DNA from: Squalus acanthias
Lineage: Eukaryota
Length of the DNA stretch: 64,000 nucleotides
NCBI GenBank assembly: GCA_030390025.1
Contig: JASTWF010000034.1
Coordinates: 2,914,001-2,978,000, forward strand
Direction of reading: 5' to 3'
The translations under genes were made by a program, and so were the position numbers. A model generated the notes under the pieces. It saw only the letters and a list, made by a program, of their open reading frames with translations. It was not told the DNA's origin and made no database searches. This document shows positions 9,685 to 61,647 of this stretch, one piece after another. Position 1 is the stretch's first letter, and each line of letters begins with the position of its first letter.

Positions 9685-9775
9685 ATGGATTGGGGTGAAG
9701 TGCTTAGGATATTAGGAATATGTTATGATATACAAAATATGTACTATCCCCTCCTCACTGCTGTTGATGTTCCTA
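9685..9775 (+). CDS. GPR139/GPR142-like GPCR, coding exon 1
   Basis: Encodes MDWGEVLRILGICYDIQNMYYPLLTAVDVP followed by a phase-1 donor a|gtaag at 9776. YYPLL..V.VP is the start of TM1, which exon 2 lacks. Confidence 0.8.
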
Positions 9776-9809
9776 GTAAGGATCTATGTCCAGTTATTAA
9801 TTCTAAGTG

Positions 9810-12800
9810 ATGGAGAGGCCCAGAGAAAGAGCTAGGCGTTTCAGTGACGAGGCATTGGTGGCTCTGGTTGGCGCTGCGGGACGGCGATGGGCAGTGCTGC
9901 TCCAAGAGAGTGGCAGGAGGCCATTGCCCCGGGAATTTAGAAGGGTGTGGAGGGAGGTGGTTCAGCACATCTGCTCGAGGAGCCTGATGCCGAGGACCCA
10001 CACCCAATGTCGTATGAAGTTCAATTACCTCATTCGGGTGATTACCTACTTTTCAATACCTCTACATCCCTCCATCTCAACTCCACTCTGTGCCCAGAGG
10101 ATTTACAAACCCAAATGCCCAACACTCATCCAAGAACTATGTCCATCTCATAAAACACACATGCACATCCCACACCTTGCACACATTAATCGCTATTCAA
10201 CTAGAGGAGACACAACTGCCAAAAACATGGCTGCACACAGTAACGGCTAATCAACTATAGTAGGCACATCTGCTAAACACATGGCTGCACACAATAACGG
10301 CTGTTCAACTATTCTAGGCACATCCTGGTGACTCCAGGATCGTAGGTTGCTTCCCTGGTTCCAGGGTCAAGGATGTCACTGAACGGCTGCAGGGCATTCT
10401 GAAGGGGAAGGGGGAACAGTCAGAGGTCGTGGTTCACATTGGCACTAACGACATAGGTAGAAAGAGGGATGAGGTCCTGCAACCAAATTTAAGGAGTTAG
10501 GAAGCAGATTCAAAAGCAGGACCTCAAAGGTTGTAATCTCTGGATTACTCCCGGTGCCATGTGCAAGTGAGTATAGTAATAGGAGGATAGAGCAGATGAA
10601 TGCGTGGCGAAAGAGTTGGTTCAGGAGGGAGGGCTTTAGTTTGATGGATCACTGGGTATCCTTCTGGGGAAGGTGGGACCTGTACTAGTCTGACGGGTTG
10701 CACCTGAACCGGAAAGGGACCAGCATCCTTGCGGGGAGGTTTGCTAGTGCTGTTGGTGTGGGGGAGGGGGCTTAAACTAACATGGCAGGGGGATGGGATA
10801 CGGAATGGAGCTATAGTAGGGGGTGATGCACAGCCAAATATAGAGAAAAGAACAACTCAGTCTGAAAGCCAGAGCAAATATGTAACGGCACAAGGGGTTA
10901 TGGCAAGCCTGGATGGCATTTATTTTAATGCAAGGAGTCTTACGAGTAAGGCAGAGGAATTGAAGGTGTTGATGAACACATGGGAGTATGATAGTATTGC
11001 TATCACAGAGACATGGTTGAGGGATGGGCAGGACGGGCAGCTCAATATTCCGGGGTATAGAATCTTCAGGCGAGACAGAGGGGTTGTAAAAGAGGAGTGG
11101 GTATCGCAATATTAATCAAGGAGTCAATTACTGCAGTAAGGAGGGATGATATCTTAGCAGGTTCCTCTAATGAGGCCCGATGGGTAGACCTTAAAAACAA
11201 AAAGGGGGCAAGCACTTTGGTGGAAGTGTACTAAGGCCCCCAAACAGTCTGGGGGAGATAGAGGAACAGATATGTAGGCAAATCTCAGAGATGTGCAGAA
11301 AAAATAGGTTAATAATAGTAAGGGATTTCAACTTCCTCAATATTAACTGGGATAGTCAGAGTTTGAAAGGCTTAGAGGGTGCGGAATACTTAAAGTTCAT
11401 CCAGGAGAGCTTTTTGAGCCAGCATGTAAAAAGTCCTACAAGAGAGGGGGCAGTACTGGACCTAATTCTAGGGAATGTACGCGGGCAAGAGGTAGAAGCG
11501 TCAGTAGGAGTGCATTTTGGTGACAGTGACCATAATTCGGTGAGATTTAAGGTAGTCATGGAAAAGGACAAAGATGGATCGGAAATAAAGGTTCTAAATT
11601 GGGGGAAGGCCGATATTAATATGATAAGGCAGGGTCTGGCCAAAATGGACTGGGATCAGCTACTTGTAGGAAAAACCACATCAGAGCAGTGGGAGTCATT
11701 CAGAAATGAAATAGAAAGTGTACAGCGCCAACATGTTCCCGTAAAGGTCAAGGGTGCGACCAACAAGTCCAAGGAACCCTGGATGTGAAGGGATATACAT
11801 GAATGGATTAGGAAAACAGGGAGGCTTTTGGCAGATACAAAGGACTAAAAACAGTGGAAGCCCTAGAAGTGTACAGAAAGTGCAGGGGGGTACTTAAAAA
11901 AGAAATTAGGACAGCGAAGAGGGGTCATGAAAAAACACTGGCAGTCTAAATAAAGTAAAATCCCAAGGTGTTTTATAAGTATATTAAGGGCAAGAGAAGA
12001 ACCAGGGAAAGAGTAGGGCCCATTAGGGACCAAAGTGGCAATCTGTATGTAGAGCCGTAAGATGTAGGTGAGGTTTTAATTTAATATTTTGCATCTTTGT
12101 TCATTATGGAGAAGGACGATATAGGCATTGATAGCATGCAGGGGGATTGTGATATAATTGAACAACTTAGCATTGAATGTGTGGCGATACTAACGGTCTT
12201 TAGCGGGCTTAAATGTGGATAAATCCACAGGCCCAGACAAGATGTATCCCAGGCTGTTGTGTAAGGCAAGGGAGGAGATTGCAGGGGCTCTGACATAAAT
12301 TTTCAGAACCTCTCTAGCCACAGCGGAGGTGCCAGAGGACTGGAGAACAGCTAACATAGTACCATTATTCAACAAGGGTAGTAGGGATAAACCAGGGAAT
12401 TACAGGCCAGTGAACCTAATATCAGTGGTAGGGAAATTATTGGAAAAATTCTGAGGGACAGAATTAGTCTCCACTTGCAGAGTCAAGGATTGATCCAGGA
12501 TAGTCAGCGTGGCTTTGTCAGGGGGAGATCATGTCTAACCAATTTGATTGAATTTTTCGAGTGGGTGACCAGGTGTGTGGATGAGGGTAGTGCAGTTGAT
12601 GTAGTCTACATGGACTTCAGTAAGGCTTTTGACAAAGTTGCGCATGGGAGACTGGTCAGGAAGGTAAAAGCCCATGGGCTCCAGGGCAATTTGGCACATT
12701 GGATGCAAAATTGGCTTAGTGGCAGCAGGCAGAGGATGATGGTCGAAGTTTTTTTTTTAACTGGAAGCCTGTGTTCAGTGGTGTACCGCAGTGATCGGTG

Positions 12801-15300
12801 CTTGGTCTTTTGCTGATTGTAATTTACATTAATGAATTAGATATGAATGTAGGAGGTATGATCAGTATGTTCGCAGATGACACGAAAATTGGTGGAGTGG
12901 TAAATAGCGAGGAGGGAAGCCTGAGGCTACAGGACGATATAGACGGGTTGGTCAGATGAGCAGAACAGTGGCAAATGGATTTTAACCCTGAAAAGTGTGA
13001 GGTGATGCATTTTGGGAGGATTAACAAGGCAAGAGAATACACAATGAATGGTAGGAACCGAGGATGGACAGAGGATCAGAGGGTCCTTGGTGTGCATGTA
13101 CATAGATCCCTGAAGTCAGCAGGACAGGTAGATAAGGTGGCTAAGAAGGCATATGTGATACTTGCCTTCATTAGCCGAGGCATAGTATATAAGAGTAGGG
13201 AGGTTATGATGGAGCTATACAAAATGCTAGTTAGGCCACAGCTGGAATACTGTGTGCAGTTCTGGTCGCCACACTATAGGAAGGATGTGATTGCATTGGA
13301 GAGGGTGCAGAGGAGATTCAGCAGGATGTTACCTGGGCTGGAGCGTTTCAGTTATGAAGAGAGACTGGACAGGATGGGATTGTTTTCCTTAGACCAGAGA
13401 AGGCTGAGGGGACACCTGATTGAGGTGTACACAATTATGAGGGGCATAGATAGAGTAGATAGAAAGGAAGTTTTCCCCTTAGTAGAGGGGGCAATGACCA
13501 GGTAGCATAGTTTCAAGGTAAGGGGCAGGAGGTTTAGAGGGGATTTGAGGGAAAAACAAATCACCCAGAGGATGGTTGGAATCTGGAACTCACTGGCTGA
13601 AAGGGTGGTAGAGGCAGGAACCCTCACAACTTTCAAGAAGGATTTGGATGTGCACTTGAAACGCCATAGCATACAAGGCTACGGACCAAGTGCTGGAAAA
13701 TGAGATTCGAATAGATAGGGCTTGATGGCGGGCGCGGACACGATGGGCCGAAGGCCCTCTTTCTGTGCTGTATAACTCTATGGCTCTATCTGCCAAACAC
13801 ATGGCTGCACACAATAACGACTATTTAACTATGGTAAGCACATCTGCCAAACACATGACTCCACACTCACTCACTCACAAGCTGTCCTTTTTCTTGCAGG
13901 CCAAGTTCTCTCATAACAGACGGTAGCAGCAAAGCATGGGACCAGGACCGGCGGACCTACACCTCCTGACTGAGTTGGAGGACAGAGTGCACAGGATCGT
14001 TGCCAGCCAGGTCATAGGTGCAGTGTCCGCTGGAGAGGTCGACCCCCTTGGGACAGCAATGGTATGTTCATCAGCTTTCTCTCCTCTCTCACACCTCTTC
14101 ACCCTCACAACACCAGCCTTTTACACTTTCAATCCAACTAACTGTCTCCAGTCCTTGCTCCCTTCCTGCCCCCCTGCGCTTATGCTAAAGCCACTCTAGC
14201 ACCTTCCTGCTTTCAGATAGTGAGCCACCTGCTGACCAGCCTGTCCCTCAGCCTGCTAGTGGCAGCAATTTGCTAGTCGAGGAGGAAGAGGAAGCCAGAG
14301 GCTCACCACCTGCATCTCCCAAGGGTGAAACATCAGACACTGGATCCAGGCATTCCCTGGCGGGGAAAAGGGTGTTAGGGTCTGTGAGGGAGAATCTCCT
14401 GGACCCAGCGGGCTACAGCAATGCCATATGGGTAAGGGAAGCAGGCGCGCGAGGTCTGCTGCACAGGACTTGGATGAGGACCTCTTTATCGCGGCCATGA
14501 ATACCCAAGCCTTGAGCATGAACACTGAGCTGATGGGTGCAATGGCAAGGGTGCTTGACAGCATGGATACACTGGCTAGGAGCGTGGAGGAGTCCACCGC
14601 TAGCACAGCTGTCATCTGTGCACAAGCCCTTGAACCCATCCTTGCCTCATTGCAGAGGATGGTTGAATAGCAGGGAGACCGTGGTGAACCAGAGCCGTGT
14701 GTAATGGGTGAGGTGGCACGATCCATTGCAGCACAGACCGACGCAACGCAATGACAAAGTGCTGCAATTCAGTCATTGGATGGTGCCATCCAGTCTCAGA
14801 CTGCTGTCATGCAGTCTCAGATTGATGTCACGCAAGCATGAGTACTGCCATCCTCGCAGGGTCACCCAACGTCCATCAGGGAGATCAAGGTGCGGCAGCA
14901 GGCCAGCAATCTGTGCTGGAGCAGATTGCACCGGATGCTGAGGTTCTGCAACGGGGGAGTGGCAGTGTGTCGGTCGAACAGGAAGGTGCTGCCCACTCTC
15001 AAGTTGACAGCATTCCTGTCCCACCAACGCCACTTCCCCATTGCACTTGGCACGGCCTGCAACACAGCCAGCCCAGCCTGCTGCCGCCCGTGCAGAGTTG
15101 GTGCAGTCTGCAGCCGGGCACTCCAGGCCCAGAGCTGGTCGAGGGCGTCCTTCAAGGCAATCTCTTGATCCAGCATTCAGCAGCCTTCCACCAGCCTTGC
15201 TGCAGACAGTGGAGCCAAATTAGGTGGAGCAGTAGGGTGGGAAAGGGGGAAGTGCGCAGGGGATGGAGGTCACCCTCGAAGGCCAACAGTAGACTCTGTA
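9810..15300 (+). pseudogene. Harbinger Myb/SANT-like (trihelix) DNA-binding protein, multi-exon, disrupted
   Basis: Exon 1 encodes RARRFSDEALVALV...W...W...RTHTQCRMKFNYL. Exon 2 follows ttgcag at 13900 and has an in-frame TAG at 13924. Exon 3 follows tttcag at 14217 and is frameshifted. Confidence 0.8.
10326..13787 (+). mobile_element. 5'-truncated degenerate CR1 LINE inserted in the Harbinger Myb-gene intron
   Basis: ORF1 esterase remnant, endonuclease (IYFNARS, AITETWL) and RT (DFSKAFDKV, RPQLEYC) fragments, and tail ataactctatggctctat. It splits a ~52-bp repeat (ctgccaaacacatggctgcacac) that continues on both sides. Confidence 0.93.
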
Positions 15301-15599
15301 AATAAATCGGGGAATGTTTGTTGGAAAGTTCGAGGTTGTTGTTATTATATTTGTTTACTGTTTTGCCGTTTATGTCCATGTTGTGAGGACAAGTTTTGTT
15401 AGTTCATGAATTGTTGGGTCTGTTTCTAATTGTTTGTCCTGAATAAATTACACAGATTTTGTAACATAAATATTTTTAGAAATTCTAACTTTACATCTTT
15501 CCTGATTTGAATCATTGCAGCTTTGCCCGGCAATATGGTGTGCGGGATGCTTTCAGTGATGTGCTTCTTCATCCCAGAAGCCATCTTCTCAGTAAGGGA

Positions 15600-16767
15600 T
15601 TAGAATCGGTGTCTTATCAGCCATTCACGGACAGCCCTTGCAATGGCAACATGGTGCGCCTCCCTGCCACGTTGGTGCTGCTGATCCTCCTCTTCAACCT
15701 CCTCCTCATCCTCCTCCTCAGGTGGTGCACCAATCCCTGGTGGCAATAGCTGGGCCCTCATGATTGCAATGTTTTGAAGCATGTAGCACACAACAATAAA
15801 GAGGGAGACTTGCTCGGGATAGTACTGCAGGGCTCCCTCTGAGTGGTCCAGACACCGGAACCTTTGTTTCAAGTCACCGGTCGTGTGCTCAATGAGGTTC
15901 CTGGTGGAGCTATGGCTCTCATTGTATTGCAGCTCGGCAGGGGTGTTGGGTTTATGGAGCGGTGTCATCAGCCAGGTGCAGAGTGGATAACCCTTGTCCC
16001 CAAGGAGCCATCCACTAGGTTGATGCGGTGGTTGGAAAAGGTCTGCGACACCAGTCTGCCGCAGGATAAAAGTATCGTGGCTGCTGCCAAGATAGCGGGC
16101 ATTGACGGCGAGGATGAGCTGTCTGTGGTCACACACCAACTGGACATTCAGAGAGTGGATTCCCTTGTGGTTTCGGAACACCTCTGCATTGTCATAAGTT
16201 GCCCACAATGACACATGCGTGTAGTCAATGGCGCCCTGAACCATGGGGAAGCCCACTATTCTCGCACAGCCACATGCGCGTTTGTGCTGTTTGTCCCGGG
16301 TCGTCGGGAGAGATGTACTGGCGTCTCCTCTTCTACAAAGCCTTTGTCACCTCCTGGATGCAACAATGAACAGCAAACTGGGAGATATTCACTATGTCCC
16401 CAGTAGAAGTCTGAAAGGGACAGCTGACTTCGAAATTCAGAGCCACTGTCACCTTCACTGCCATCGACAGAGACGTCCTGATCCTGAACTAAGGCTGCAG
16501 ATCTGGTTGCAGGAGGTGGCAGAGCTCAGTTTCCACCTCCTTGCTGACCCGCAGTCTTTGGAAACACTGCTCCTCAGACAAATGGATATAGGAGGAGAAT
16601 TGCTCCCGGAATACCCTGGGAGGATAAGGTCTCCTGTGCAGAGGCCTGTTGACCCTCCTCCCTCTGACAATGTTTGCCACTGTCTCTCTGCGCCTCTGCT
16701 GTCTCTGAAGGTGAAGCTGGACAATGAAGAAGCCCCGAGTTAGTGCAGCCCCCATCGAAGCTTCCAT
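15600..16767 (-). pseudogene. HARBI1-like Harbinger DDE transposase, interrupted
   Basis: Motifs GAIDYTH, GSSHD, LLGDKGY and RNLIEHT...LKQRFRCL. The N-terminal ORF 16489-16767 is separated from 15600-16256 by a stop/frameshift. Confidence 0.92.
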
Positions 16768-17469
16768 ATATCGTTAGAAGGAAGGTGAAATAAAAATGAA
16801 CCTCCAAAGTTGTTCTCAGGACCCAAAACTCTTTCGGTCAGCGTCGAATCTCTCCAGACGTCTGTCTCCCTCTCAACCTGTGTGTACCAAAAATTTTGCC
16901 GACAAGAAAAGACAGGAAGCGGCCGCCTTTAAATAGCGCTCCCACAGCTCCTTCCTGACTTGAAAACGTTCCCCTCTACCTGTCGTTCCTAGCGGCAGGC
17001 GGAAAGGCAGGGGACGTGACCCATTATCCGGTCCGGGGTGTTACCGGGGCGTTGCACTCTCGCATGATGTCACGATCTGCGAGTGCAGGAGAACGTTGCG
17101 GCATTCTTTAGCACCGCTGCAAAAAGACTGGTCTATTTCGCTAGTGGCGCTAAAATAGCCGTGCTCGGGCGCTAAGTATCGAGCACACGGATAGCGCCCC
17201 CGAATGCGCTAAGGGGAGGCGCAAACCAACCGGCTTTTCCCCCGCATGTTTAACTGTGTTTCTCTCTTTGTCGTTCCCCATCCCATCCGCGCTGCTGTCA
17301 GCTATTGATTCTGATCGTGATATTGTGTTACCAACATTAAAATGTTCTATATTCAACTCAAATAAATTTATTGGAGGTGACTCTTTATTTAACGAATTTC
17401 AATCTGCTACCGACACTGAACATTTGTATCAGGTCAGAAGAATGCTGTCTTGGTTTAGGAGACTTTTCA

Positions 17470-17615
17470 CCTAATGGCGAAAGGCCATGGACCTGAAACT
17501 AGAACTCTGTTTCTCTCTCTCTCCACAGATACTGTCTAACCCGCTGAGTATTTCCATCATTTTCTGTTTTAATTTCAGATTTCCAGTATCCTCAGTATTT
17601 TGCTTTTGTTTTCAC
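17470..17615 (+). mobile_element. Degenerate Penelope terminal fragment
   Basis: gacctgaaac...ctctccacagatactg...ttcagatttccagtatcctcagtattttgct matches the family at 2671 and 27573. Confidence 0.7.
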
Positions 17616-18922
17616 CTAATGCTCGGTATGGTTACTTACAGAGTCACAGGAACAAATCCTGGCAGATCACATCCACATCTTTAAATGTCTGAAATATCCG
17701 CTAATCATTCAGTTCCAGTCAGTGTCTCCTTTTTCACCCTCTCCAGTTCTGCATTATTGGCACTGCTTCTGATGGCTAAAGTATGATTACAAGAATAATT
17801 TACATTCTCACAAAACGTTAATTCAGCCAGATTTCAATACATTTCTTTCTGATCATGTTTTGAATTTACAGTTGGATCCCATGCCCGTCTGTCATAGTAC
17901 AGTGGATCTGTCAGTTTGACCCAGAGTGATTCTCTATTGCATCCGGCTGTACTTCAGGATAAATACTCCCAGCTGATTGTAACTGAAGCACTGAGGATAA
18001 GAAAATCCTTTGATATCTTCTCGTCTAATATTCTCTGCACAAGTTGGAAACAACAGGTGAAAAAGTACAAGGATAAATCTCTTCCATTTGTGTTCAGATA
18101 CTTTACAACAGCATTCGGCAGCACTTTGCCTGTGGGTTAAGTTGGCTGATTTCGATGCTGATAAATGAATTTAGTGGGACATTACCTGGTCAATCATCAG
18201 TATTTACTTTAATTCAGAGGCCATTACTTGCAATGTTACTTGGCAAATCTTCCTTTCAATGAGCTAGAATTTGAGTATTTCAACAAAAATGCAGTAAACT
18301 CAATCTCCAAAATATATCTGATAACCCAGTTATCTTTATTACTACAGTGCACTTGTATTTATTATCTTAGCATTGTCGTATTACATCCGTACCTTTTATA
18401 TACAATTGCTTGTAATTATTGCATGCCAAGGATGCAGTTTCTGCATTTTGCTGTTGCATTCATTTTCAGTTCTAAATAAAATGGATATTCTAACCAAGAG
18501 CAGGAATCCAAGCGGGATTTCCCCCTCCCTAACACAGTTACACAGAAGCGAACTGCACCGCTCCAAATGCTGACTGATCCCGGGACATGAAGGCTTCCTG
18601 AGAGGGTCTGGTCCTTTGTGTCCCTGGTACCTCGAGCGGTGCTTTTGTCTGCTGGGCTAAATTTAGATCGATCATTTAATCTCTCCTTGATCAAACATCT
18701 GTTACTTTCATAATGTATTTATTCCATTTCATTTGTTGATTCCACAATGTATTCCCGATTATTCTTACAATAAGCTCCGTATTTTGCTTCACAGGTACTA
18801 GGATTAGATTATATCATTGAATGTCGGTTATCAGTTGCAGATTTCACCCCGAATTCCATCAAACTGCTGCTTTTGCTCCCACCCTGATGTATAATTTCCC
18901 TGTTTATTTCCCTTCCTCACAG

Positions 18923-19824
18923 TTAACTTAATAACGATTGTGATCCTGTCTCGGGGAAAGTGTGATCTCTCCAAATGTGTCACTCGCTACCTGGTGGCCA
19001 TGGCAGCGGCGGATCTACTGGTCGTTATCCTCGACCTGATATTGAGGCACATTCCCATTCTTTATAAGGAACAGCTTGATTTCGTGTGGTCCATCCGCGT
19101 GTGTAATATCCACGCCGTCCTGCTGTTCGCAGCCACAGACTGTTCTGTCTGGTTCACCGTCACTTTCACCTTTGATCGATTTGTGGCCATTTGTTGCCAG
19201 AAGCTGAAAACTAAATATTGCACCGAGAAAACGGCGGCTGTGATTCTGGGAATAGTGACTGTGCTGAGCGGTTTAAAGGACATCACCTGGTATTTTATGT
19301 TCAGAGGTCGGTATAGGCATGGGAACCAGCCCTGGTTTTGTGATATCACAATCGATGTTCGGAATTCACGGGTCTGGGGAACAATCGAGCTCGTTCATTA
19401 TATTCTCACCCCGTGTGTCCCATTTGTGGTGATTGTGCTGCTCAATGCTGTCACCGTCAGACACATTTTAGTGGCCAGCAGAGCCCGCAGGAGACTCCGG
19501 GGTCCCAGCAGTGGGGAGTGTCCCAGAGACCCAGAGATGGAGAGCCGCAGGAAATCCATCATTTTACTGCTTGTTATCTCCGGCAATTTCATCCTGTTAT
19601 GGGCAATGTTTATGGTGTATTCTATATGGAGCCGGATGTTTTATTTGGGGGATAATTCTGTATTTATACCATATTATGTAATGGAACTGGGATTCATGCT
19701 GCAGCTGCTGAGTTGCTGCACAAACACTGGGATTTATGCCGTGACCCAGACTAAGTTTAGACAGCAGTTGAAGAATGTGGGAAAATATCCCTTTACTCTG
19801 ATTGTAAAATTCATTAAAGGATGA
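18923..19824 (+). CDS. GPR139/GPR142-like class A orphan GPCR, coding exon 2
   Basis: Polypyrimidine tract and acceptor AG at 18921-18922, phase 1. Uninterrupted ORF with LVAMAAADL (TM2), FTFDRFVAIC (DRY-like), hydrophobic TM4-TM6 and SCCTNTGIY (TM7). Confidence 0.92.
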
Positions 19825-19877
19825 GAAGAAGCGGAGACTTTGCAACCTGAGAGTTGAGAATTCCCTGGGCCTGATAT

Positions 19878-22670
19878 TGTGGCGCCCCGCACAAAGATGG
19901 CGGCTCTGGGGCTCCGCACAAATATGGCGGCTCTGGAGCCCAGCACAAAGATGGCGGCTCCGCGGTCCAGCACATATATGGCGGCTCTGGGGCACCACAC
20001 AAAGATGGCGGCTCTGGGGTCCCGACCAAAGATGGCGGCTCCGGATCCCAGCACAAATATGGCGGCTCTGGGGCACCGCTCAAAAATGGCGGCTCTGGGG
20101 TCCCGTCCAAAGATGGCGGCTCCGGGTCCCAGCACAAAGATGGCGGCTCTGGGGCTCCGCACAAAAATGGCGGCTCTCGGGTCCCGCCCAAAGATGGCGG
20201 CTCTGGAGCCCCGGACAAAGATGGCAGCTCTGGAGCCTCGCACAAAAATGGCGGCTCTGGGGCCCCGGACAAAGACGGCTGCTCTGGGGCCCTGGACAAA
20301 GTTGGCGGCTCTGGGGCTCCGCATAAAGATGGCGGCTCCAGGGCGAGGCACAAAGATGGCAGCTCTGGGGCCTCGCACAAAGATGGCCACTCCGGGACAC
20401 CGCACAAAAATGGCGGCTCTGGGGTTCCGGCAGAAAGATGGCTGCTCTGGGGCCCAGCACAAAGCTGGCGGCTGTGGGGCTCCGACAAAAATGGCGGCTT
20501 CGGGGCCCCGCATAAAGATGGCGGCTCTGGGGCCCCGCACAAAGATGGCGTCTCCGGGGAACCGCACAAAAATGGCGGCTCTGGGTTCCCACCCAAAAAA
20601 TGGCGGCTCTGGTGCCGCGCAAAAAGCTGTCGGCTCCGGCGCCCCGCACAAAGATGGCGGCTCTGGGTCCCGCCCAAAATTGGCAACTCCGCGGCCCAGC
20701 ACAAAGATGTCGGCTCTGGGGCCCAGCACAAAGATGGCGGCTCTGGGGCCCAGCACAAAAAGGTGACTTTGGTGCCCAGCACATAGATGGCGGCTCTGGG
20801 GAACTGGCCAAAAATGGCGGCTCTGTAGCCCCGCACATCGACGGCGGCTCTGGGGCACCGCATAAAGTTGGCAGCTCCGGGGCCTAGCACGAAGATGGCG
20901 GCTCTGGGGCCCCGCACAAAGATGGCGGCTCTGGGGCTCCGCACAAAAATGGCGGCTCAGGGGCACAGCACAAAGGTGGCGGCTCCGCGGCCCGCACAAC
21001 GATGGCAGCTCTGGGGCACCGCACAAATGTGGCGAGTTTGGGGCCCCGCACAAAGATGGCGGCTCTGGGGATCCGCACAAAGATGGCGGCTCTGGAGCAC
21101 AGCACAAAATTGCGGCTCTGGGTTGCAGCACAAACATGGCGGCTCCGGGGACCCGCACAAAAATGGCGGCTCTGGGTTCCCACCCAAAAAGTGGCGGCTC
21201 TGGCGCCCCGCAAAAAGCTGTCGGCTCCGGCGCCCCGCACATAGCTGGCGGCTCTGGTACCCGCCCAAAATTGGCGGCTTCGCGGCCCAGCACAAAGATG
21301 GCGGCTCTGGTGCCCCGCACAAGGATGGCGGCTCTGGGGCCCCGCACAATGATGGCGGCTCTGGGGCCCAGCACAAAAATGGCTGCTCTGGAGCCCCGCA
21401 CATAGACGGCGGCTCTGGGGCACCGCATAAAGTTGGCAGCTCAGGGGCCTAGCTCGAAGATGGCGGCTCTGGGACTCCGCACAAAGATGGCGGGTCTGGG
21501 GCTCCGCACAAAATTGGCGGCTCAGGGGCACAGCACAACGATGGCAGCTCTGGAGTACCGCACAAAGATGGCGGCTCTGGGGCACAGCACAAAATGGCGG
21601 CTCTGGGGCGCAGCACAAAAATGGCGGCTCCGGGGCACAGCACAATGATGGCGGCTCTGGGGCCACGCACAAAGATGGCGGCTCCGGGGCCCAGCACAAA
21701 GATGGCGGCTCCGGTGCTCCGCACAAAGATGGCGGCTCTGGGGCTCCGCACAAAGATGGCGGGTCTGGGGCTTCGCACAAAATTGGCGGCTCAGGGGCAC
21801 AGCACAACGATGGCAGCTCTGGGGCACCGCACAAATGTGCCGACTTTGGGGCCCCGCACAAAAATGGCGGCTCTGGAGTACCGCACAAAGATGGCGGCTC
21901 TGGGGCACAGCACAAAATGGCGGCTCTGGGGCGCAGCACAAAAATGGCGGCTCCGGGGCCCAGCACAATGATGGCGGCTCTGGGGCCACGCAAAAAGATG
22001 GCGGATCCGGGGCCCAGCACAAAGATGGCGGCTCCGGGGCCCCGCACAAAGATGGCGGCTCCGGTGCTCCGCACAAAGATGGCGGCTCTGGTGCACCGCA
22101 GAAACGGGTGACTCTGGGGCCCCGCACAAAGATGGCGGCTCTGGCGATCAGCACAAAATGGCGGCTCTGGGTCCCAACACAAAGGTGGCTGCTCCGGGGC
22201 CCAGCACAAAGATGGCGGCTCTGGGGCCCAGCACAAAAATGGCGTCTCTGAGGGTCCGCAAAAATGGCGGCGCTGGGGCCATGCACAAATATGGCGACTC
22301 CAGCGCCCGACAGAAAGATGGCGCATTTGGAGCCCCGCTAATAGATGGCGGAATTGGGGCCCCGCACAAAGATGGTGGCAGAGGGGTCCCGCACAAAAAT
22401 GTTGGCACTGGGGCTCCGCACAAAGATGGTGCCACTGGGGCTCCGCACAAAGATGGCGGCTCTGGAGCCCCGCACAAAGATGGTGGCACAGGGGCCCCGC
22501 TTAAAGATGGTGGCACTGGGGCCCTGCACATAGATGGCGGCTCTGGAGCCCCGCTCAAAGATGGTGGCAATGGGGCTCCGCACAAGGATTGCGGCACTGG
22601 GGCCCCGCAAAAAATGGCGGCTCTGGGGCCCCGCACAAAAATGGCGGCTCTGAGGCACCGCACAAGGATT
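19878..22670. repeat. 27-bp CpG-rich tandem repeat (~100 copies), each carrying a YY1-type motif
   Basis: Unit cgcacaAAGATGGCGGCtctggggccc; the 9-codon period yields the MAALGPRTK-type ORFs. Confidence 0.95.
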
Positions 22671-22964
22671 GTGGATGTCAGTCGGGGTCTTTCCCTGGCG
22701 GCGACAGGCGAGTGTCCGGATGGCGGGAGCAGTTGGAGTCCCGGTTACTGTGAGAGCGGGTGGCGAGTCGGAGCAGCCTGGCCCAGCACGGCCCAGAGGA
22801 CCTCGAGCAGCCCAGCCCGGGGAGGAGATGGCCCGGCACCAGGACTTTATTACTCATTACAACACTTTAAAATCATTACACAACTTTACAGATCTTTTAT
22901 AACACTTTATAAATCATTATGACCGTTAATAAAACATTATGATGCTTTTTGAATGATTATAACT

Positions 22965-23340
22965 AATTCTTGGGATGTGGGCACCGCTGACAAAGCCAGC
23001 ATTTATTGCCATCCCTTAAGCAGGTGATGGTGAGCCACCTGAGACAAGTGAGTGTCTTGATGAGCTATTTCAGAGGTCAGTTAATAATCAGCCACATTGC
23101 AGTGGGTCTGGAATCACATTTCAGCCAGACCAGGTAAGAACGGTAGATTGCCGTCCCGAAAAGCCATTAGTGAACCAGGTGGGTTTTTATTCCAGATTTA
23201 CACAAGCTTTTTATTCCAGATTTGTTTAATTAATGGCATTTAAATTCCCCCAGCTTCTGGGATTTGAACACATGTCTTTAGATTATTTGCCCAGTCATCT
23301 GGTTTACTAGTCCAGCAACATAACCACTATGCTACCGTAA
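22965..23340 (-). mobile_element. tRNA-derived SINE (old, family unassigned)
   Basis: Minus-strand head ggtagcatagtggttatg...gtgttcaaatccc; its tail is similar to the LINE 3' end at 23345-23515. Confidence 0.6.
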
Positions 23341-23344
23341 CCTT

Positions 23345-23515
23345 CAAATATATCGTTGTTCCTTCATCGTCACTGGGTCAAAAGCTTGTGGGAGCACCTT
23401 CACCACACGGACTGCAGCGGCTCAAGATGAAGGCCCACCATTTTCTCATGGGTAACCAGGGATGGGCAAGTGATACCAATCTTGACAGCGTCACCCCTAG
23501 CCTGAGAACAAATAC
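23345..23515 (+). mobile_element. LINE 3' end fragment (CR1-related)
   Basis: caccacacggactgcagcggctcaag...ggatgggcaa resembles shark LINE 3' ends. Confidence 0.55.
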
Positions 23516-24327
23516 ATCGAAATAATAAAATAGGATTAAAATCAATGCTTTTATAATTCATTGATTGAAACCAGATGAGGCCTGTGATCAGAGCGGGGCT
23601 TACAGTACGCTAAACAAATTGTCAACACCACTTGGATCTCCAATTCTATCGTTGTATGATTGATACTGCTCACACTGTACCAATTTCCCAATCATTACAA
23701 AAGGTTCTTGATAATGGATCACATATTACCACAATTGAAGCCCATGGGATTAAAGTGGCAGTGACAACAGTGAGTGGTGTGGGGTGTATCAGCATGTAAG
23801 AGAGAGTTACATTAAGGGATGTATCAGAGTGTTACAATGGGTGGTGTGGGGTTTATCAGCGTGTTGTAGTGAGGTATGTTCGGTACATCAGAGTGTTACA
23901 GTGAGTAGTGTGGGGTATATCCGAGTGTTACAGTGAGGGGTGTGGGGTTTATCAAAGTGTTGTAGTGAGGTGTGTGGGGTATATCATAGTTTTACCGTGA
24001 ACGGTGTGGGGTATATCAGAGAGTTACAGTGAGGGGTGTGGTGGATATCGCAGTGTTACAGTGAGGGGTGTGGGGGTATATCAGTGTTACAGTGAGGGGT
24101 GTGGGGTACATCCGAGTAATACAATGAGCGGTGTTGGGAATATCAGAGTTTTACAGTGAGAAGTGTGGTGTATAACAGAGTTTTACAATCAGGGGTGTAG
24201 GTTTATATGAGTGTTTTACATTGAGGGGTGTCGGGTATATCAGAGTGTTACAGCGCGGGGTTTGGAATATATCAGACAGTGTTACAGTGACGGGCGTGGA
24301 GTAAAACGGTGTGTTACAGTGAGAGGT

Positions 24328-25150
24328 TTAAGAACATAAGAACGTAAGAAATAGGAGCAGGAGTAGATCATTCAGACCCTTGAGCCTGCTCTGCCATTCA
24401 ATGAGATCATGGCTGATTTTCTGCCTCAATCCTTTCACCTGCCTTATTCGATATCCCTTCATGCCATTACTAGTCAGAAATCTATCGACTTCTGTTTCGA
24501 ATATATTCAATGACTGAGCATCCACAGCCTTATAGGGTAGATAATTCCAAAGATTCACCACCCTCTGTTTGAAGAAATGTCTGTATTAGAGTTAGATATA
24601 TTTCTTAAGGCGAAGGGGATCAAGGGATATGGGGATAAAGCAATGACAGGGTACTGAATTTGGATGATCAGCCATGATCGTATTGAATGGCGGAGCAGAC
24701 TCGACGGGCCGAATGGCCTACTCCATCTCCTCTCTTCTATGCTTCTCATCTCAGTCCTGAATGGCCTACCCTTTATCATGAGGCTGTGGCCCCTGGTTCT
24801 AGACTCCCCAGCCAAGGGAAACATTCTCCCAGCATCCAACCTATCAAGCCCTGTAATAATGTTTTATGCTTCAATAAGATCCCCACTCATTCTTCTGAAT
24901 TCAAGAGAATACAGGACTAGTTTACTCAATCTCTTCTCATACGACAGTCCCGCCTTCCCAGGAATCAATCTCGTGAACTTTCGTTGCACTCCCTCTATGG
25001 CAAGTATATCCTTCCTTAGGTAAGGAGACAAAAATTGCACACAGTACTCCAGGTGTGGTCTCATCAAGGCACTATACAAAGGGAGGTAGACTTCTTCACA
25101 CCTGTACTCTAATCCTCTTGTAATGAAGGCCAGCATACCATTTGCCTTCC
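24328..25150 (-). mobile_element. CR1 3' fragment with a nested plus-strand CR1 tail (~24585-24742)
   Basis: Minus-strand ORFs with RPHLEYC, DAGRMFPL and VNLWN; the oppositely oriented tail ends ctcttctatg. Confidence 0.88.
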
Positions 25151-25228
25151 TTGGGGTATGTAAGAGAGTGTTACAATCAGGAGTGTGGGGTATATCAGTG
25201 TGTTGCAGTGAGAGGTGTGTGGTTTATC

Positions 25229-26355
25229 TGTGAAAGAATAAGCCATATAACCTATTCAGAAAAATACACCATTCTATGAAAGAATTCTGGCCTTATTAAA
25301 ACATGACAAACTGGATCTGGAAATCTAGAAACCTAACTATGAAAATGCTGTGAAAGCATTCTGGCTGTAGAGATAAGATAGTTGTTGACACTGAATCAAT
25401 AACCTTATTGAAACAGAAGGTTAAAGGCTCCGGTAGTCTGACCTTTCGGAACAAGACAATGGTTCACCCAGGTTAAGGTGTTCTAATTTAGATTTTGTAA
25501 AGAAGCACAAACATCTGCCTTCGTAAAAATGACATCAAGTAAAACGCACCTGCCGTTACGCCGTTTTTTATGGTAAATTAAGAACACCTAGGGAAGAGAC
25601 ATAATTCTGTAATGCTGCCAGCTGTGGTGACTGTAAGAATTGCAGGGGTCAGCAGAAAAATCACCAGAGATAATTAGCTTACATCGGCAGAAAACCTTAA
25701 AGAAAATACCACTGGAAAAGGGTATAAATATTGAACTGTCAAATGGGATAGTAGACTCGCTTTAAGGGGCAAGGTGATTCTTGGCTTCAGAGGTGGCTCT
25801 GTATGTCTCCAACTCTATGTACCTCGGGTATCAAAGTTATTTGATTTTTGTGGATATCCTGTAGAAAATTAAGAACTGTAAAACTGTAGCGAAGTTAAGA
25901 TTTGAAAGTAAGGTTCTCTAATAATAGAATTGTAAGCTTTCTCTTTTTGGAACTGTTAATGTTGCGATTGACACACCAACTGTAAATTACATGTCGGTTC
26001 TTTAATAAATCTATATATTTTTAGAATTGTCTCAAGTAAGACTTCTGTATCAAACTCGCAAACTCAATCTCTGTACACTCTTTGGTGAGGAGTTGCAGAA
26101 TTCTGGGGAGTTGTCCAGACCCTCATAATATCCGGAACGTTACCGTCTATCTAAACTTATTAAAAGTGCTATCTGGAGGACGGTAACATTTTCAGGTTCT
26201 TCCTTTCCTTTAGGGAGAGATAGTCCGGACCTTTAGACCCAATTAAGCATCTTTAGGATTCGTCTACCTCAAAGTTTGGTTGAAAGTGAACGTCTGAAGA
26301 ATATGCTTGATCCGGGGTAGCCTTAAAGGGACTAGGACTAGTAATTATCCCTTCA
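25229..26355 (+). mobile_element. Solo LTR (1127 bp), ERV or Ty3/Gypsy
   Basis: TG...CA ends (tgtgaa...cttca); flanks tatc/gatc fit a 4-bp TSD with one mismatch; TATAAATA at 25723 and AATAAA at 26004; cleanly interrupts one satellite unit. Confidence 0.75.
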
Positions 26356-32571: not shown

Positions 32572-33495
32572 CTAGGCTATCAGTTTCTGCTCGATGATTT
32601 TGCGTTGTCGTGTGTTTCTAAGGTTGCCTTGGAGAACGCTTACCCGCAGATCCGAGGCTGAATGTCCTTGACTGCTGAAGTGTTCCCCGACTGGGAGGTA
32701 ACAATCCTGCCTGGCGATTGTTGCGCGGTGCTCGTTCATACGTTGTCTCAGTGTCTGCATGGTCTCGCCGATGTACCATGCCGCGGTGCATTCTTTCCTG
32801 CAACGTATGAGGTAGACAACGTTGGCCGAGTCACATGAGTATGTACCATGTACCTGGTGGGTAGTGTCCTCACGTGTGATGGTGGTATCTGTGTTGATGA
32901 TCTGGCATGTCTTGCAGAGTTTGCCATGGCAGGGTTGTGTGGTGTCGTGGTCGCTGTTATCCTGAAAGCTGGGTAATTTGCTGCGAACGATGGTACTTCT
33001 GAGGTTAGGCGGCTGTTTGAAGGCAAGTAGTGGAGGCGTGGGGATGGCCTTAGCGAGGTGTTTGTCGTCATCGATGACATGTTGAAGGCTGCGAAGAACA
33101 TGGCGTAGTTTCTCCGCTCCGGGGAAGTACTGGACGACGTAGGGTACCCTGTTGGTTGTGTCCCGTGTTTGCCTTCTGAGGAGGTCTATGCGATTTTTCG
33201 CTGTGGCCCGTCGGAACTGTCGATCGATGAGTCGAGCGTCATATCCCGTTCTTACGAGGGCGTTTTTCAGCGTCCGTAGGTGTCCATCGCGTTCCTCCTC
33301 GTCTGAGCAGATCCTGTGTATTCGCAGGGCTTGTCCATAGGGGATGGCTTCTTTAACATGGTTAGGGTGGAAGCTGGAGAAGTGGAGCATCGTGAGGTTG
33401 TCCGTGGGCTTGCGGTAGAGTGAAGTGCTGAGGTGTCCGTCTTTGATGGAGATTCGTGTGTCCAGGAATGAGACCGATTCTGAGGAGTAGTCCAT
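32572..33495 (-). CDS. Penelope RT C-terminus/thumb plus GIY-YIG endonuclease (partial, open frame)
   Basis: SFLDT...YRKPT...SFHP, followed by CKTC, NVVYLIRC and YIGET..LRQRMNEH...VGEHF. Confidence 0.88.
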   Translation of the reverse strand: MDYSSESVSFLDTRISIKDGHLSTSLYRKPTDNLTMLHFSSFHPNHVKEAIPYGQALRIHRICSDEEERDGHLRTLKNALVRTGYDARLIDRQFRRATAKNRIDLLRRQTRDTTNRVPYVVQYFPGAEKLRHVLRSLQHVIDDDKHLAKAIPTPPLLAFKQPPNLRSTIVRSKLPSFQDNSDHDTTQPCHGKLCKTCQIINTDTTITREDTTHQVHGTYSCDSANVVYLIRCRKECTAAWYIGETMQTLRQRMNEHRATIARQDCYLPVGEHFSSQGHSASDLRVSVLQGNLRNTRQRKIIEQKLIA

Positions 33496-33538
33496 GGTGA
33501 GTTTGATGGTGGGATGGAACTTGTTTATGTTATCGTGT

Positions 33539-43080: not shown

Positions 43081-44254
43081 TGCAAGAAATGGTTTGCAAG
43101 AACCATGCAGGAGCACGACACGTCCAGCTCGTCCGTTAGCCCTGAGGCCAATGTAACCGAATCAGTGGTGTGGGTCAGTGGGCCCAGCGGCTTCCAGTTG
43201 CACTGCAGTTGGGTAATGGGCGAAATGTTGCCCCCATCAGTTAAAGGTTCTTCCCTAAACTGATCTTATTGTCAGCGAGGTAGACTTTATGTGTCGCAGT
43301 GCTTCGTGAAAGAGGAAATCTGGAACTCGCTTCCCCCAAAAAGGTTATGGATGCTTTCAAGGCGGAAATCGATGGATTTTTGTTGGGTAAGGGTGTCGAG
43401 GTGCTATCAGGAATTTGTTGCGGAGATCAGAATTCTGCCAGCTGCTTCCTGTCTCCGTTAAGTTCTACATTTTGCGGACCTGTTCATGTGTTTTTTGTTA
43501 TATTTATTTACCTGCTTGTTGGCCGTTTTATTTTTAATCTGTTTTTATTCCCAGAATTCAGCTCCGACTCTGGCAACCCATCTTTACGCTGCGAGGTCAC
43601 AACATGGCATTGCAGTTCTGAATGGGGAAAAAAATTGACAAAGGATGAAGGAGTCACCCCTTGAAACACACATAACGCCAAACAAACTGCAATACAACAC
43701 TCCAGCTTGATTATGGTGGTGTGACATTCTGTGACAAATAGGGACTTTATAAAACACTGATTAGGCCCCAGCTGGAGTACTGTGTTCAGTTCTGGGCACC
43801 ACACTTCAAGGAATGATGTCAAGGCCTTGGAGAGGGTGCAGAAGCGATTTACTAAAATGACATATAATTAAATAGAAATGCATAGCATACACGGCACAGA
43901 AACAGGCCATTCGGCCCAACCAGTCCACGCTGGCATTTATGCTCCACTCAAGCCTCCTCCCACCGTTTCTCATCTAACTCTATCAGCATAAACCTCGAAT
44001 CCCTTCTCCCTCATCTGCTTATCTAGCTTCCCCTTGAATGCATAACTTTTATTCGCCTCAACTACTCCCTGTGGTATCTTCCTCCGCAGTGGACAAACTG
44101 AGGCCTTCACACTGAGGCTGCACCCAATGGGCCCACGTGAGTTTGTATCTGTTTATTACCCCGGGGTTTCATTTCCTGTCGCGGAACCTGAGTTTCCTGT
44201 GCCTCGTGTTAACTTGTTCCTGTTGGCTGCGGCCCTTGAGTTTTAAAGAAGTTT

Positions 44255-45910
44255 AAAGCCTAGTGTTAATGTAACCCTGGCCTTGCAATGTGACAGAATC
44301 ACGTTAACCCGCGGAGCGAGACAGAGAGAGCCCCCACCCCGAGTGGAAATTAAAGTTAGCAACGTGAACCTGTGGAAAGCTTGTTATAATTCCATGTAAT
44401 GCTTCTGTTTCCGGGCAATGTGATGAATTTGATGGTTAAGTTATATGCACGGTGGCCATTTTAAGTGATATCTATCCGTGGCGAGCTTTTTAAATGATAT
44501 CTATCTGTGGTGGCCATTTTAAATGATATCTATCCGTGGCGGGCATTTTAAGTGATATCTATCCGTGGCGTGCATTTTAAGTGACAGCTATTCCTGGCAG
44601 TGATTTTATTCGACATCCGTAGTGGCAATTTTAAGTAATATGCGCGGTGGCCAGAAAACAGAGGGGCACTTGTTACAGAGTCCGACTCCACACTGGGAGA
44701 GACACAAGCTGTACACAGGGACACTTCTTACAGAGTCTGACTCCACACTGGGAGAGACACAGTGTACACAGGGACACTTCTTACAGAGTCTGACTCCACA
44801 ATGGGAGACACACACACTGTACACAGGGACACTTGTTACAGAGTCCGACTCCACACTGGGAGATACACACACTGTACACAGGGACACTTGTTACAGAGTC
44901 CGACTCCACACTGGGAGAGATACACTGTACACAGGGACACATCTTACAGAGCCCGACTCCACACCAGCAGAGACTCACACATAATACAGGGACACTTGTT
45001 ACAGCGTCCGACTCCACACTGGGAGAGACACTGGGAGAGCCTAGGTTTAAAGTAGCCCTGGCCTTCCAATGTGACACAAACACGTTAACCTGTGGTGCGG
45101 GAGAGAGATGCTCCCCACCGCGAGTGGAAATTAAAGTTATCAACGTGAACCTGTGTAAAGGCTTGTTTTAATTCTAGAACAATGCTTCTGTTTCCGTGAA
45201 GAGCGATGAATTTGACGATTCAATGATATGCACGGTGGTTTTTTAAGTGATATCTACTAGTGGCGGCCATTTAAAGAGGTATCTATCTACGGCAGCCATT
45301 TTAAGCGTTATCCATCTCCGTGGCCATTTTAAGTGATATCTATCTGTGGCGGCCATTTTAAGTGACATCTACTCGTGGCAGCGATTTTATGTGATATCCG
45401 TGGCGGCTATTTTATGTAAGAAGTACGCCGGCCATTTTAAGTGATATGAGCGGCGGCCATTTTAAGTGACACGGGCTCGGGCCATTTTAATGAATATGTG
45501 CGGCGGGCATGTTCATTATTATGCGCGACAGCCAGTTTACACAGGGACACTTGCTCCAGATTCCGACTCCACACTGTACACAGGGACACTTGTTACAGAG
45601 TCCGACTCCACACTGGCAGAGACACATACTGTACACAGTGACACTTGTCACAGAGTCCGACTACACACTGGGAGAGACACAAAGTGTACACAGGGACACT
45701 TGTTACAGAGTCCGACTACACACTGGGAGAGACACAAATTTTATACAGTGACACTTGTTACAGAGTCCGACTCCACACCATCAGAGACTCACACTGTACA
45801 CAGGGACATTTGTTACAGAGCCCGACTCCACACTGGGAGAGACACACTGTACACAGGGACACTTGTTACAGAGTCAGACTCCACATTGGGAGAGGGACAG
45901 ACTGTACACA
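44255..45910. repeat. Two-copy composite unit (~780 bp): unique ~200 bp, ~29-bp GGCCATTTT repeats, ~55-bp minisatellite
   Basis: 44255-44450 aligns with 45040-45235. Each is followed by gtggcggccattttaagtgatatctatcc repeats and then gtacacagggacacttgttacagagtccgactccacactgggagagacac repeats. Confidence 0.88.
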
Positions 45911-46989
45911 GAGAAAGTTATGACAGAGCATAAGAACGACTGTATTTTCTGGATACTTTGATATTTCTGGAAATAACATCCATTTATGTTTCAAATTGAT
46001 CTATCGGATGTGTTCTTTCAACCCTACCACCAATCCCGTCACCTTCTAAGCCTCCTCTCACTTGTTGACAGATGGGCAGGATTCCCTCTTCACTGCACTG
46101 AATGGGAGTGCTGAGATCCACAAGAGAGACTATACCAGGGCTGGTGTAGCACGGGTGAGGGACAGAATAAAGCTCCCACTAAACTGTCCCACCAAACATA
46201 CTCAGGGTAAGTACAGAGAGTGTTCGAAACAAAGGAAAGCTCCCACAACACTGCCCACAAAGTGTTTGATGAGACAGTGTAGACGGAGTATTAATCTATA
46301 TCTAACATGGGGTGCACATGCTGTGGAATGTTTGATGGGGCAGTGTTTGGGAAAAAATCTTTATCTAACCCTTGCTGTACTTGCCTTGGGAGAGTTGGAC
46401 GGGGCAGTGTATGGGAGCGTTAATCTGTATCTAACCGTACTGTACCTGCCCTGGGAGTGCTTTTCTAAAAGAGAACTATACACACTTATCTGGTACAGTA
46501 CGGACCATGTGTGTTTCAGTGTCAGCTCCTGTACATGTACAGTACACACCAGGTAAAAGGGAATGATGCACTCCCGTCTGGTACTGTACACTGTGTGTGT
46601 CTCAGTGTCAGCTCCTGTACATGTGCAGTAAACATTGAGAAAAAGGGAAAGATTCACTCTTATCTGGTACTATACATGCTATGTGTCCACCGACTCCATC
46701 TCTCTCCCTGGCAAAAGTCTGAGGTTCTACCTGTCCGGGGAGTGTTTGATTGGAGAATGTGAAGGTAGCTTTACTCTGTATCTAGCCCGTGCTGTACCTG
46801 CCCTAGGATTTTTGATGGGACGGTATTGAGGCAGCTTTACTCTGTATCTACACCTAGCTGTACCTGTCCTTGGAGTGTTTGATGGGACGGTGTAGTGGGT
46901 GTTTACTTTCTATCTAACCCGTGCTGTAACTGGCGCAGGAGTGTTTGATGGGAGAGTGTACAGTGTGCTTTAATCTTTACCTGACAAGG

Positions 46990-59964: not shown

Positions 59965-61420
59965 TACTACGATGCAGTAGTCAGTTTGCTCATCCCCCCC
60001 TGCCGTCCCTGGCCTCGTTCACACAGGGAGCAAGAATCTCGCACCTGTTGGACAAGGCCAAGGGCTGAGGCTCCTCTACCACTTCCTCTTGGAAACCAAT
60101 ACCTACCTCGCTTGTAGTCACACCTTCCTGTCCCTGACCATGGGCCAAATTGGAAGTAATTATTCTAATGGGTGTGAATGCCTCCTGGAACATAGTGTCC
60201 AGGTAATGCTCCCCCTCCCCAATGTGTCGCAATGTCTGAAGCTCGGACTCCAGCTCATCAACTCTGAGCCGAAATTCATCGAGCAGCCAACATTTGCTGC
60301 AGATGTGGTCGCCCTGGACCTCAATGGTGTCCAAGAGCTCCGACATGCAACAACAACAACACATTGCCTGGTCTCCCATCTCAAATAATTAATTAGTTTT
60401 AAAATTTGGGTGGCTTTTTATCTTTTAATCTACAACAAGGCACTTAAATTTAGACGCTCAAGTTATAAAAAAGCGAGAATTAGAGAAATACTCACCAACC
60501 AATCACTTACCTGTTCTCTGGTGACGTCACACTTCGATTACTTTTTTACTTCTTCACACTCACAGGTCCGTTGTATCTCAGCGTCTCCCGGGTTTTCAAC
60601 TCTCCCTCTGTTCCCGGGTTTTGAACTCTCCCGTGTTTTGGCGCTCTCGCTCTGTTCCCGGGTTTTGAACTCTCCCGGGTTTTGGCGCTCTCGCTCTGTT
60701 CCCGGGTTTTGAACTCTCCCGGGTTTTGGCGCTCTCGCTCTGTTCCTGTGTTTTGAACTCTCCCGGTTTTGGCGCTCTCGCTCTGTTCCCGGGTTTTGAA
60801 CACTCCCGGGTTTTGAACTCTCCCGGGTTTTGGCGCTCTCGCTCTGCTCCCGCTGCTTTTGAACTCTCCCGGGTTTTGGCGCTCTCGCTCTGCTCCCGCT
60901 GCTTTTGAACTCTCCCGGGTTTTGGCGCTCTCGCTCTGCTCCCGCTGCTTTTGAACTCTCCCGGGTTTTGGCGCTCTCGCTCTGTTCCCGGGGATTGAAC
61001 TCTCCCGGGTTTTGTCGCACTCGCTCTGTTCCCGGGGTTTGAACTCTCCCGGGTTTTGGCGCTCTCGCTCTGTTCCCGGGGTTTAAACTCTCCCGTGTTT
61101 TGGCGCTCTCGCTCTGTTCCCGGAGTTTGAACTTTCCCGGGTTTTGCCGCTCTCCCTCTCTTCCCGCTGCTTTTGAACTCTCCCGGGTTTTAACGCTCTC
61201 GCTGTGTTACCGCTGCTTTTGAACTCTCCCGCTGCTTTTGAACTCTCCCGGGTTTTGGTGCTCTCGCTCTGTTCCCGGGGTTTGAACTCTCCCGGGTTTT
61301 GGCGCTCTCGCTCTGCTCCCGCTGCTTTTGAACTCTCCCGGGATTTGGCGCTCTCGCTCTGGTCCCGCTGCTTTTGAACTCTCCCGGGTTTTGGCGCTCT
61401 CGCTCTGCTCCCGCTGCTTT
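59965..61420 (-). mobile_element. CR1 5' end: tandem-repeat 5' UTR plus ORF1 N-terminus
   Basis: ORF 59990-60379 has a Cys cluster, CSKC, coiled coil (RVDELESELQTLR) and LSNR, like ORF1 at 1635. The 5' UTR carries GTGACGTCAC and a caggtaagt donor. Confidence 0.82.
60585..61420. repeat. 44-47-bp CpG-rich tandem repeat (~19 copies)
   Basis: Unit ttttgaactctcccgggttttggcgctctcgctctgttcccggg. Confidence 0.95.
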
Positions 61421-61647
61421 CAGTATACAGGGTGTATCACGGGGGTTAACTATACTGGGGATTGTGACAGGGGTGCAGTATACAGTGTTGGTGTCACAGG
61501 GGTAAAGTATACAGGGGGAGTGTCACTGGGGTATAGTATACAGGGGGGTGTTACAGTGGTATAGTATACAGGGGATTGTCACGTGTATAGTATACAGGGG
61601 GTGTCACGGGTATAGTATACAGGGGGAGTGTCACGGGTATAGTATAC
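61421..61647. repeat. ~27-bp degenerate minisatellite
   Basis: Units of gtatagtatacagggggagtgtcacgg. Confidence 0.8.

Follow-up and report, generated by a model that had tools for sequence, protein, structure and literature searches.

A tandem array of ∼104 head-to-tail 27-bp units, about half of which bear a full YY1 consensus, starts 54 bp behind the stop codon of a receptor gene of the shark Squalus acanthias. The array is a minisatellite, and its base composition is that of a CpG island. The explanation favored here, with moderate confidence, is that a minisatellite made this repeat-built CpG island without selection at the level of the individual YY1 sites.

A 27-bp array behind a receptor gene

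The window (the whole stretch of 64,000 nucleotides that was analyzed) is rich in LINE fragments and tandem arrays. The receptor gene, the array, and the adjoining sequence comprise the following features:

9685..9775, plus strand: GPCR coding exon 1; 30 codons and one base, with a GT donor next to it
18923..19824, plus strand: GPCR coding exon 2; AG acceptor upstream, stop codon at 19822–19824
19825..19877, plus strand: spacer between stop codon and array; 53 bp, without a canonical poly(A) hexamer
19878..22669, plus strand: 27-bp minisatellite; ∼104 head-to-tail units with the YY1 consensus at unit positions 6–16, in one orientation
20537..21289, plus strand: block duplication in the array; units 25–30 (from 20537) found again as units 47–52 (from 21128)
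22364..22579, plus strand: subfamily at the 3′ edge of the array, units 93–100; six of the eight units have a C-to-T exchange at the motif CpG, which alters the YY1 core
22670..22845, plus strand: GC-rich flank; GC 0.69, CpG observed/expected (o/e) 0.69, forming one CpG-island-like stretch together with the array
22854..22933, plus strand: AT-rich stretch; a 19-mer repeated 3.3 times, then a poly(A) hexamer at 22928

The open frame at 18895–19824 encodes a rhodopsin-type GPCR (Pfam PF00001, 7tm_1; E 9.8e-22). Joined at the GT-AG borders, exon 1 and exon 2 yield one uninterrupted frame of 330 aa; the junction agrees with that of homologues, and the two exons are predicted to be spliced. The intron (9776–18922; 9.1 kb) contains a Harbinger-like element. 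Among 3,993 candidates, 2,488 were homologues of the GPCR; the best 120 were all from sharks (Heptranchias, Pristiophorus, Heterodontus, and Scyliorhinus), with 55–79% identity, and 119 of these 120 were named “probable G-protein coupled receptor 139”. The gene 5′ of the array is an intact two-exon shark “GPR139-like” GPCR. Many shark GPR139-like proteins (P0008–P0051) start with a tandem 14-residue repeat that contains a potential N-glycosylation site and varies in copy number; the GPCR of the window does not have this repeat. A search of titles and abstract openings did not find expansion of the shark GPR139-like family as a subject.

The earlier note had described a 2.8-kb array of 27-mers starting 54 bp after the GPCR stop codon, an internal duplication with one variant at both ∼20581 and ∼21172, and a first AATAAA after the stop at 22928, all of which was borne out. 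Tandem Repeats Finder (TRF) reported a period of 27 with 103.7 copies and 78% matches (19880–22669), and wrap-around segmentation yielded 104 units, 103 of them complete. The array begins at 19878, with the stop codon ending at 19824, and lies 10.2 kb from exon 1. The hexamer at 22928 is the first canonical one 3′ of the GPCR stop, and the array could, judging from the order of these signals, be part of a long 3′-UTR via read-through.

Among the 103 complete units, 91 distinct sequences were found, at a mean divergence of 13%. The duplicated variant belongs to units 25–30 and 47–52, which have rare variants and indels in common; altogether, five duplicated blocks scoring at least 14 were detected (lags of 22, 12, 21, 10, and 30 units), each comprising 3–6 units. 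Besides rare mutations, the units carry seven common alleles at six positions (8, 19, 22, 24, 25, and 27); four of these positions are part of a homopolymer run of G/C or adjoin one. These alleles are mostly unlinked (three of 20 pairs with p < 0.05, uncorrected) and show little clustering, a scatter as seen where exchange shuffles variant repeats. That several indels are in homopolymer runs might point to an assembly artifact, a reading that is hardly credible in view of the number of distinct units, their divergence, and the indels common to the duplicated blocks; the blocks and the 91 distinct units show that the array is not an assembly collapse.

Because 27 bp equal nine codons and long open frames cross the array on both strands (up to 568 aa), a protein-coding repeat, active or decayed, had to be considered; the variable positions 19, 22, and 25, three apart, had prompted this candidate. 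The long frames exist because the unit has no stop codons. Identity by codon phase was 0.86, 0.85, and 0.90, i.e., without bias, 15 of 103 unit intervals differ from 27 bp and thus leave the frame, two protein searches with ∼8,000 candidates each found nothing, and atlas scores were below 0.9. The candidate was rejected, and the coding reading, which is very improbable, can be regarded as largely refuted. In its favor is also an unnamed cluster of 11 proteins (P0155 and P0248–P0257) of 104 or 131 aa, the two forms differing by three units, whose nine-residue repeat agrees with one frame of the array at seven of nine residues. Only P0155 has the words of the repeat among 127 profile matches; the other matches that were inspected are unrelated repeat proteins, many with a period of nine. 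When the DNA context of the cluster was sought, none of 172 pattern stretches was confirmed. The P0155 repeat may be a relative of the 27-mer or a convergent array, and the cluster probably represents a similar minisatellite that was annotated as a gene. A structured RNA was also rejected, as ten units fold no better than shuffled sequences (z −1.17) and Rfam gave no match in 17000–26000.

YY1 sites and CpG retention within the array

The motif in the unit is a genuine YY1 consensus, as had been claimed. It is one base away from the published YY1 site of Peg3 (PMC4196374), and it has, beside the five-base core, both flanking bases that YY1 is described as needing in EMSA (PMC11602158). The claim of ∼100 tandem sites is correct for the units (∼104), yet overstates the sites: all ten specified bases are present in 51 of 103 complete units when counted by column (50 exact by pattern count), the seven critical positions are intact in 63, and the five-base core in 74. 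The latter number is close to that expected if the core positions mutated independently (71.2).

Whether the motif is the best-conserved part of the unit, as the earlier note had stated, depends on which positions are counted. Motif identity was 92.0% compared with 85.4% elsewhere in the unit (p 0.026 against random position sets), and among the 27 circular shifts, the motif came first in identity and second in parsimony, which weakly supports the statement. However, this raw excess is wholly because of the six polymorphic positions, which lie outside the specified motif bases; without them, non-identity was 8.0% in the motif and 8.0% outside (p 0.50). For tests within the array, whose units are non-independent samples, p ranged between 0.02 and 0.07 for all positions, between 0.08 and 0.17 for positions 1–21, and between 0.19 and 0.50 without the six polymorphic positions. 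Rare mutations amounted to 8.2 per position in the motif and 7.5 outside, and to 5.2 each when the duplicated blocks were collapsed, which dropped 25 units and left 78. Of all motif bases, the A of the core (unit position 9) is even the one mutated most often (intact in 87 of 103 units; 10 parsimony changes), and in the collapsed set, the C-to-T allele of the motif reaches 10%. As mutation rates are about the same inside and outside the motif, the individual sites are without detectable purifying selection. The earlier note had proposed per-position conservation as a check, with motif positions no more conserved than the rest of the unit speaking against its reading; half of this was found, in that sporadic mutations strike the motif as they do the rest of the unit. 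The common variants behave differently from the sporadic ones: all six positions miss the ten specified bases, one of them being the free position of the motif, which is among the most variable of the unit. The chance of this is 0.04, and it is 0.13 for avoidance of the seven critical bases. Common alleles avoiding the specified bases would be what selection on spreading variants gives.

CpG islands are defined by a GC content of at least 0.55 and a CpG o/e of at least 0.65 over at least 500 bp. With a GC content of 0.64 and a CpG o/e of 0.68 over 2.8 kb (0.47 for the window), the array exceeds these thresholds; of the three CpG-island-like stretches in the window, it is the largest. Another of the CpG-rich stretches, a 44/46-mer array at 60501–61550, also reaches them, with 0/72 CpG transitions in its main part. 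That CpGs are largely retained in the 27-mer array, as noted earlier, was confirmed against an internal control. Transitions at consensus CpGs (25/412) were as frequent as at other C/G positions (94/1,532; ratio 0.99), also in the collapsed array (21/312 vs 70/1,159). For the 11 further arrays of the window with a CpG in their consensus, taken together (four without one were left out), the ratio was 4.0 (39/294 vs 88/2,678), and nine hand-picked arrays gave the same picture. A ratio of 1.4 or lower was likewise seen in four of the 11 control arrays, with small counts except for the 0/72 at 60811–61231. Within the 27-mer array, the CpG of the motif did not fare better than the other CpG of the consensus (transitions in 16/206 vs 7/138 cells). 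Unit position 19 is T in 74 units and C in 23; if C is ancestral, that CpG could have largely decayed, and G-to-A beside this position was seen in two of 23 C units and in none of the 74 T units.

The lack of excess CpG decay suggests, by way of the mutation pattern, that germline methylation of the array is low. Speaking for caution are the four control arrays with similarly low ratios, position 19, the six units at the 3′ edge that have a deaminated motif CpG in common, and the non-independence of the units. Cartilaginous fish genomes are described as globally methylated, transposons included (PMC5437953). Of the methylation-sensitive element that the earlier note had envisaged, the CpG part withstood the internal control and fits low methylation; the part that concerns the YY1 sites did less well, given that the motif is not spared by sporadic mutations.

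Known systems and competing explanations

GC-rich minisatellites (VNTRs) consist of short head-to-tail units, reach kilobase length, and contain interspersed variant repeats. The array resembles them in its few common variants shuffled among the units, its block duplications, and its divergent edge units, and its 27-bp unit is within the ∼10–100 bp of this class; it differs from them in that the unit bears a full YY1 consensus and in that CpG decay is not in excess.

The history favored here starts with a 27-bp seed containing the YY1 consensus, probably derived from promoter-like or transposon-internal sequence, which was amplified head to tail into the array seen today. YY1 sites are reported to overlap the start codons in many promoters (PMC3429435), which makes these a plausible seed source. 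Growth and turnover proceeded by duplication of blocks of 3–6 units and by the shuffling of a few old variants, now the common alleles, among the units as in minisatellite variant repeats, both of which are seen in the array. Point mutations built up at about equal rates inside and outside the motif, and the consensus CpGs decayed no faster than other bases, for which low germline methylation would be the simplest cause; a poorly methylated array would then turn into a repeat-made CpG island. The 50–70 intact sites probably bind YY1 when unmethylated, considering that the YY1 binding domain of fish is reported to be identical to the mammalian one (PMC10760456), and such binding may itself help keep the array open. 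If the receptor gene is affected at all, this would be a side effect.

The earlier note had drawn an analogy to the tandem YY1 sites in the Peg3 and Xist control regions. In the Peg3-DMR, ∼10 YY1 sites on average (PMC4196374) are described as extending over 2.5 kb in the first intron beside the promoter, where they are differentially methylated (PMC4196374, PMC5526879, PMC2665242); mutating them reportedly changed transcript levels and left methylation unchanged (PMC5526879). As there, the YY1 motif of the array resides in a CpG-rich tandem repeat, and many tandem sites are present (51 of 103 units full, 74 of 103 with the core). Unlike the published Peg3 sites, these 51–74 are found 3′ of a stop codon, at a distance of 10 kb from exon 1, and neither in a first intron nor at the promoter of the gene, where the analogy fails, even if an unannotated promoter on the 3′ side of the array is possible. 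By its sequence, the array is built like the Peg3 YY1 array, yet by its position, it is outside that class. Tandem units with one YY1 site each are also described for the 5′-UTR monomers of mouse L1 Tf, where on average 2–4 monomers are followed by a tether and ORF1 (PMC11602158). The shark array, in contrast, consists of 104 27-bp units that no element body follows; with neither tether nor ORF1 or ORF2, it is not a LINE-1 5′-UTR monomer array. Repeat-borne YY1 motifs in fish are reported from the X of Poecilia picta, where they are tied to low methylation (PMC10760456). Those repeats are dispersed, transposon-like copies for which methylation was measured, as opposed to one dense tandem array for which the mutation pattern suggests low methylation. 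In titles and abstract openings, a literature search found no YY1 tandem array described in sharks.

Against this background, it has to be asked whether the array has a job. That it acts in regulation is possible, as far as its composition and location can tell. The most explicit version, a selected, methylation-sensitive YY1 cluster serving as downstream enhancer or looping anchor of the receptor gene in the manner of Peg3, is considered rather unlikely. It would account for 51–74 intact sites on the same strand, compared with the reported average of ∼10 at Peg3 (PMC4196374), for the common variants missing the motif (p 0.04), and for the CpG decay not being in excess; the array is, furthermore, the largest CpG-island-like stretch of the window and adjoins the stop codon, while the 1 kb around exon 1 is no CpG island (GC 0.46, CpG o/e 0.41). 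Yet rare mutations do not spare the motif, a third to half of the sites are broken, the motif CpG is kept no better than the other one of the consensus, the position is unlike that of Peg3, and the repeat left no trace in the read-through tails of homologues, which have other 3′ sequence. Such a tail was present in nine of the 120 best homologues, and these speak, if weakly, against the array as a family-wide feature. (The tails of three Heterodontus homologues, P0039, P0080, and P0058, have one 3′ sequence in common that is unlike the array and may be another repeat behind the stop.) A broader proposal, which we regard as improbable, is that an unmethylated, very dense YY1 platform stands behind members of the greatly expanded shark GPR139-like family as a per-gene enhancer or tether, with its copy number or methylation choosing the receptor that is expressed; selection would then determine which variants spread and thereby how many sites stay intact, and would not act on each site.

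Quite unlikely as well is that array, GC-rich flank, and AT-rich tail are one inserted element, in which the promoter or a subterminal repeat of a transposon was amplified out of control. YY1 sites are described in the mouse L1 monomers (PMC11602158) and in a spreading DNA-transposon-like repeat of a fish (PMC10760456), a 54-mer with a YY1-type match is present inside the Harbinger-like element of the window, and the abrupt start of the array 54 bp past the stop resembles an insertion. What was found around the array argues against it: 22923–24657 contains no ORF of at least 120 aa, no second copy of either flank exists within the 64-kb window, none of the 25 longest inverted pairs (of 423) was convincing as terminal inverted repeats, and the GC-rich flank had neither an Rfam match nor a convincing protein match for its frame. 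The amplification of a retroelement promoter, as suggested in the earlier note, is thus unsupported in the window. The next LINE piece (24330–25151) matches the window's RT-bearing copies, and a two-unit pattern had no match among metagenome contigs.

If the minisatellite is ordinary, it is one more of its kind in sharks, notable for five to seven times the YY1 sites of Peg3 and for its own CpG island. If it is functional, tandem YY1 control elements would extend from mammalian imprinting to cartilaginous fish and would make it testable how a receptor family represented by thousands of database entries is regulated.

Other YY1-type repeats in the window

The window contains 16 arrays with at least five copies and periods of 20–70, and YY1-type cores are not confined to the 27-mers. 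They also occur in a 29-mer array (44450–44594 and 45260–45500), ∼22 kb from the 27-mer array and far from the GPCR gene, whose unit is unrelated outside the core, and in the 54-mer repeat of the Harbinger-like element (10178–10324; match at 10224). By hand arithmetic, with seven specified bases and both strands counted, the distinct unit consensus sequences (∼660 bp together) are expected to contain ∼0.09 YY1-type matches; the chance of two such repeats beyond the selected one is ∼0.003, again by hand arithmetic and post hoc. Repeats with YY1 sites thus seem to be recurrent in this genome and not peculiar to the receptor gene, and their presence in three unrelated repeats of 64 kb raises the question of whether YY1-bearing seeds are amplified preferentially.

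The 29-mers are within an ∼800-bp local duplication (44200–45950; 76% identity), each copy of which contains a 29/25-mer array, its YY1-type cores being on the minus strand, and behind it a 55-mer array. The Harbinger-like element has a DDE_Tnp_4 frame (15600–16346, minus strand) and a Myb-like-looking frame without a Pfam match (9807–10250), and a LINE nested at ∼10330–13780 interrupts its 54-mer repeat. A frame at 32572–33537 (minus strand) matched GIY-YIG weakly (E 7e-4, below the cut-off) and is probably a fragment of a Penelope-like retroelement.
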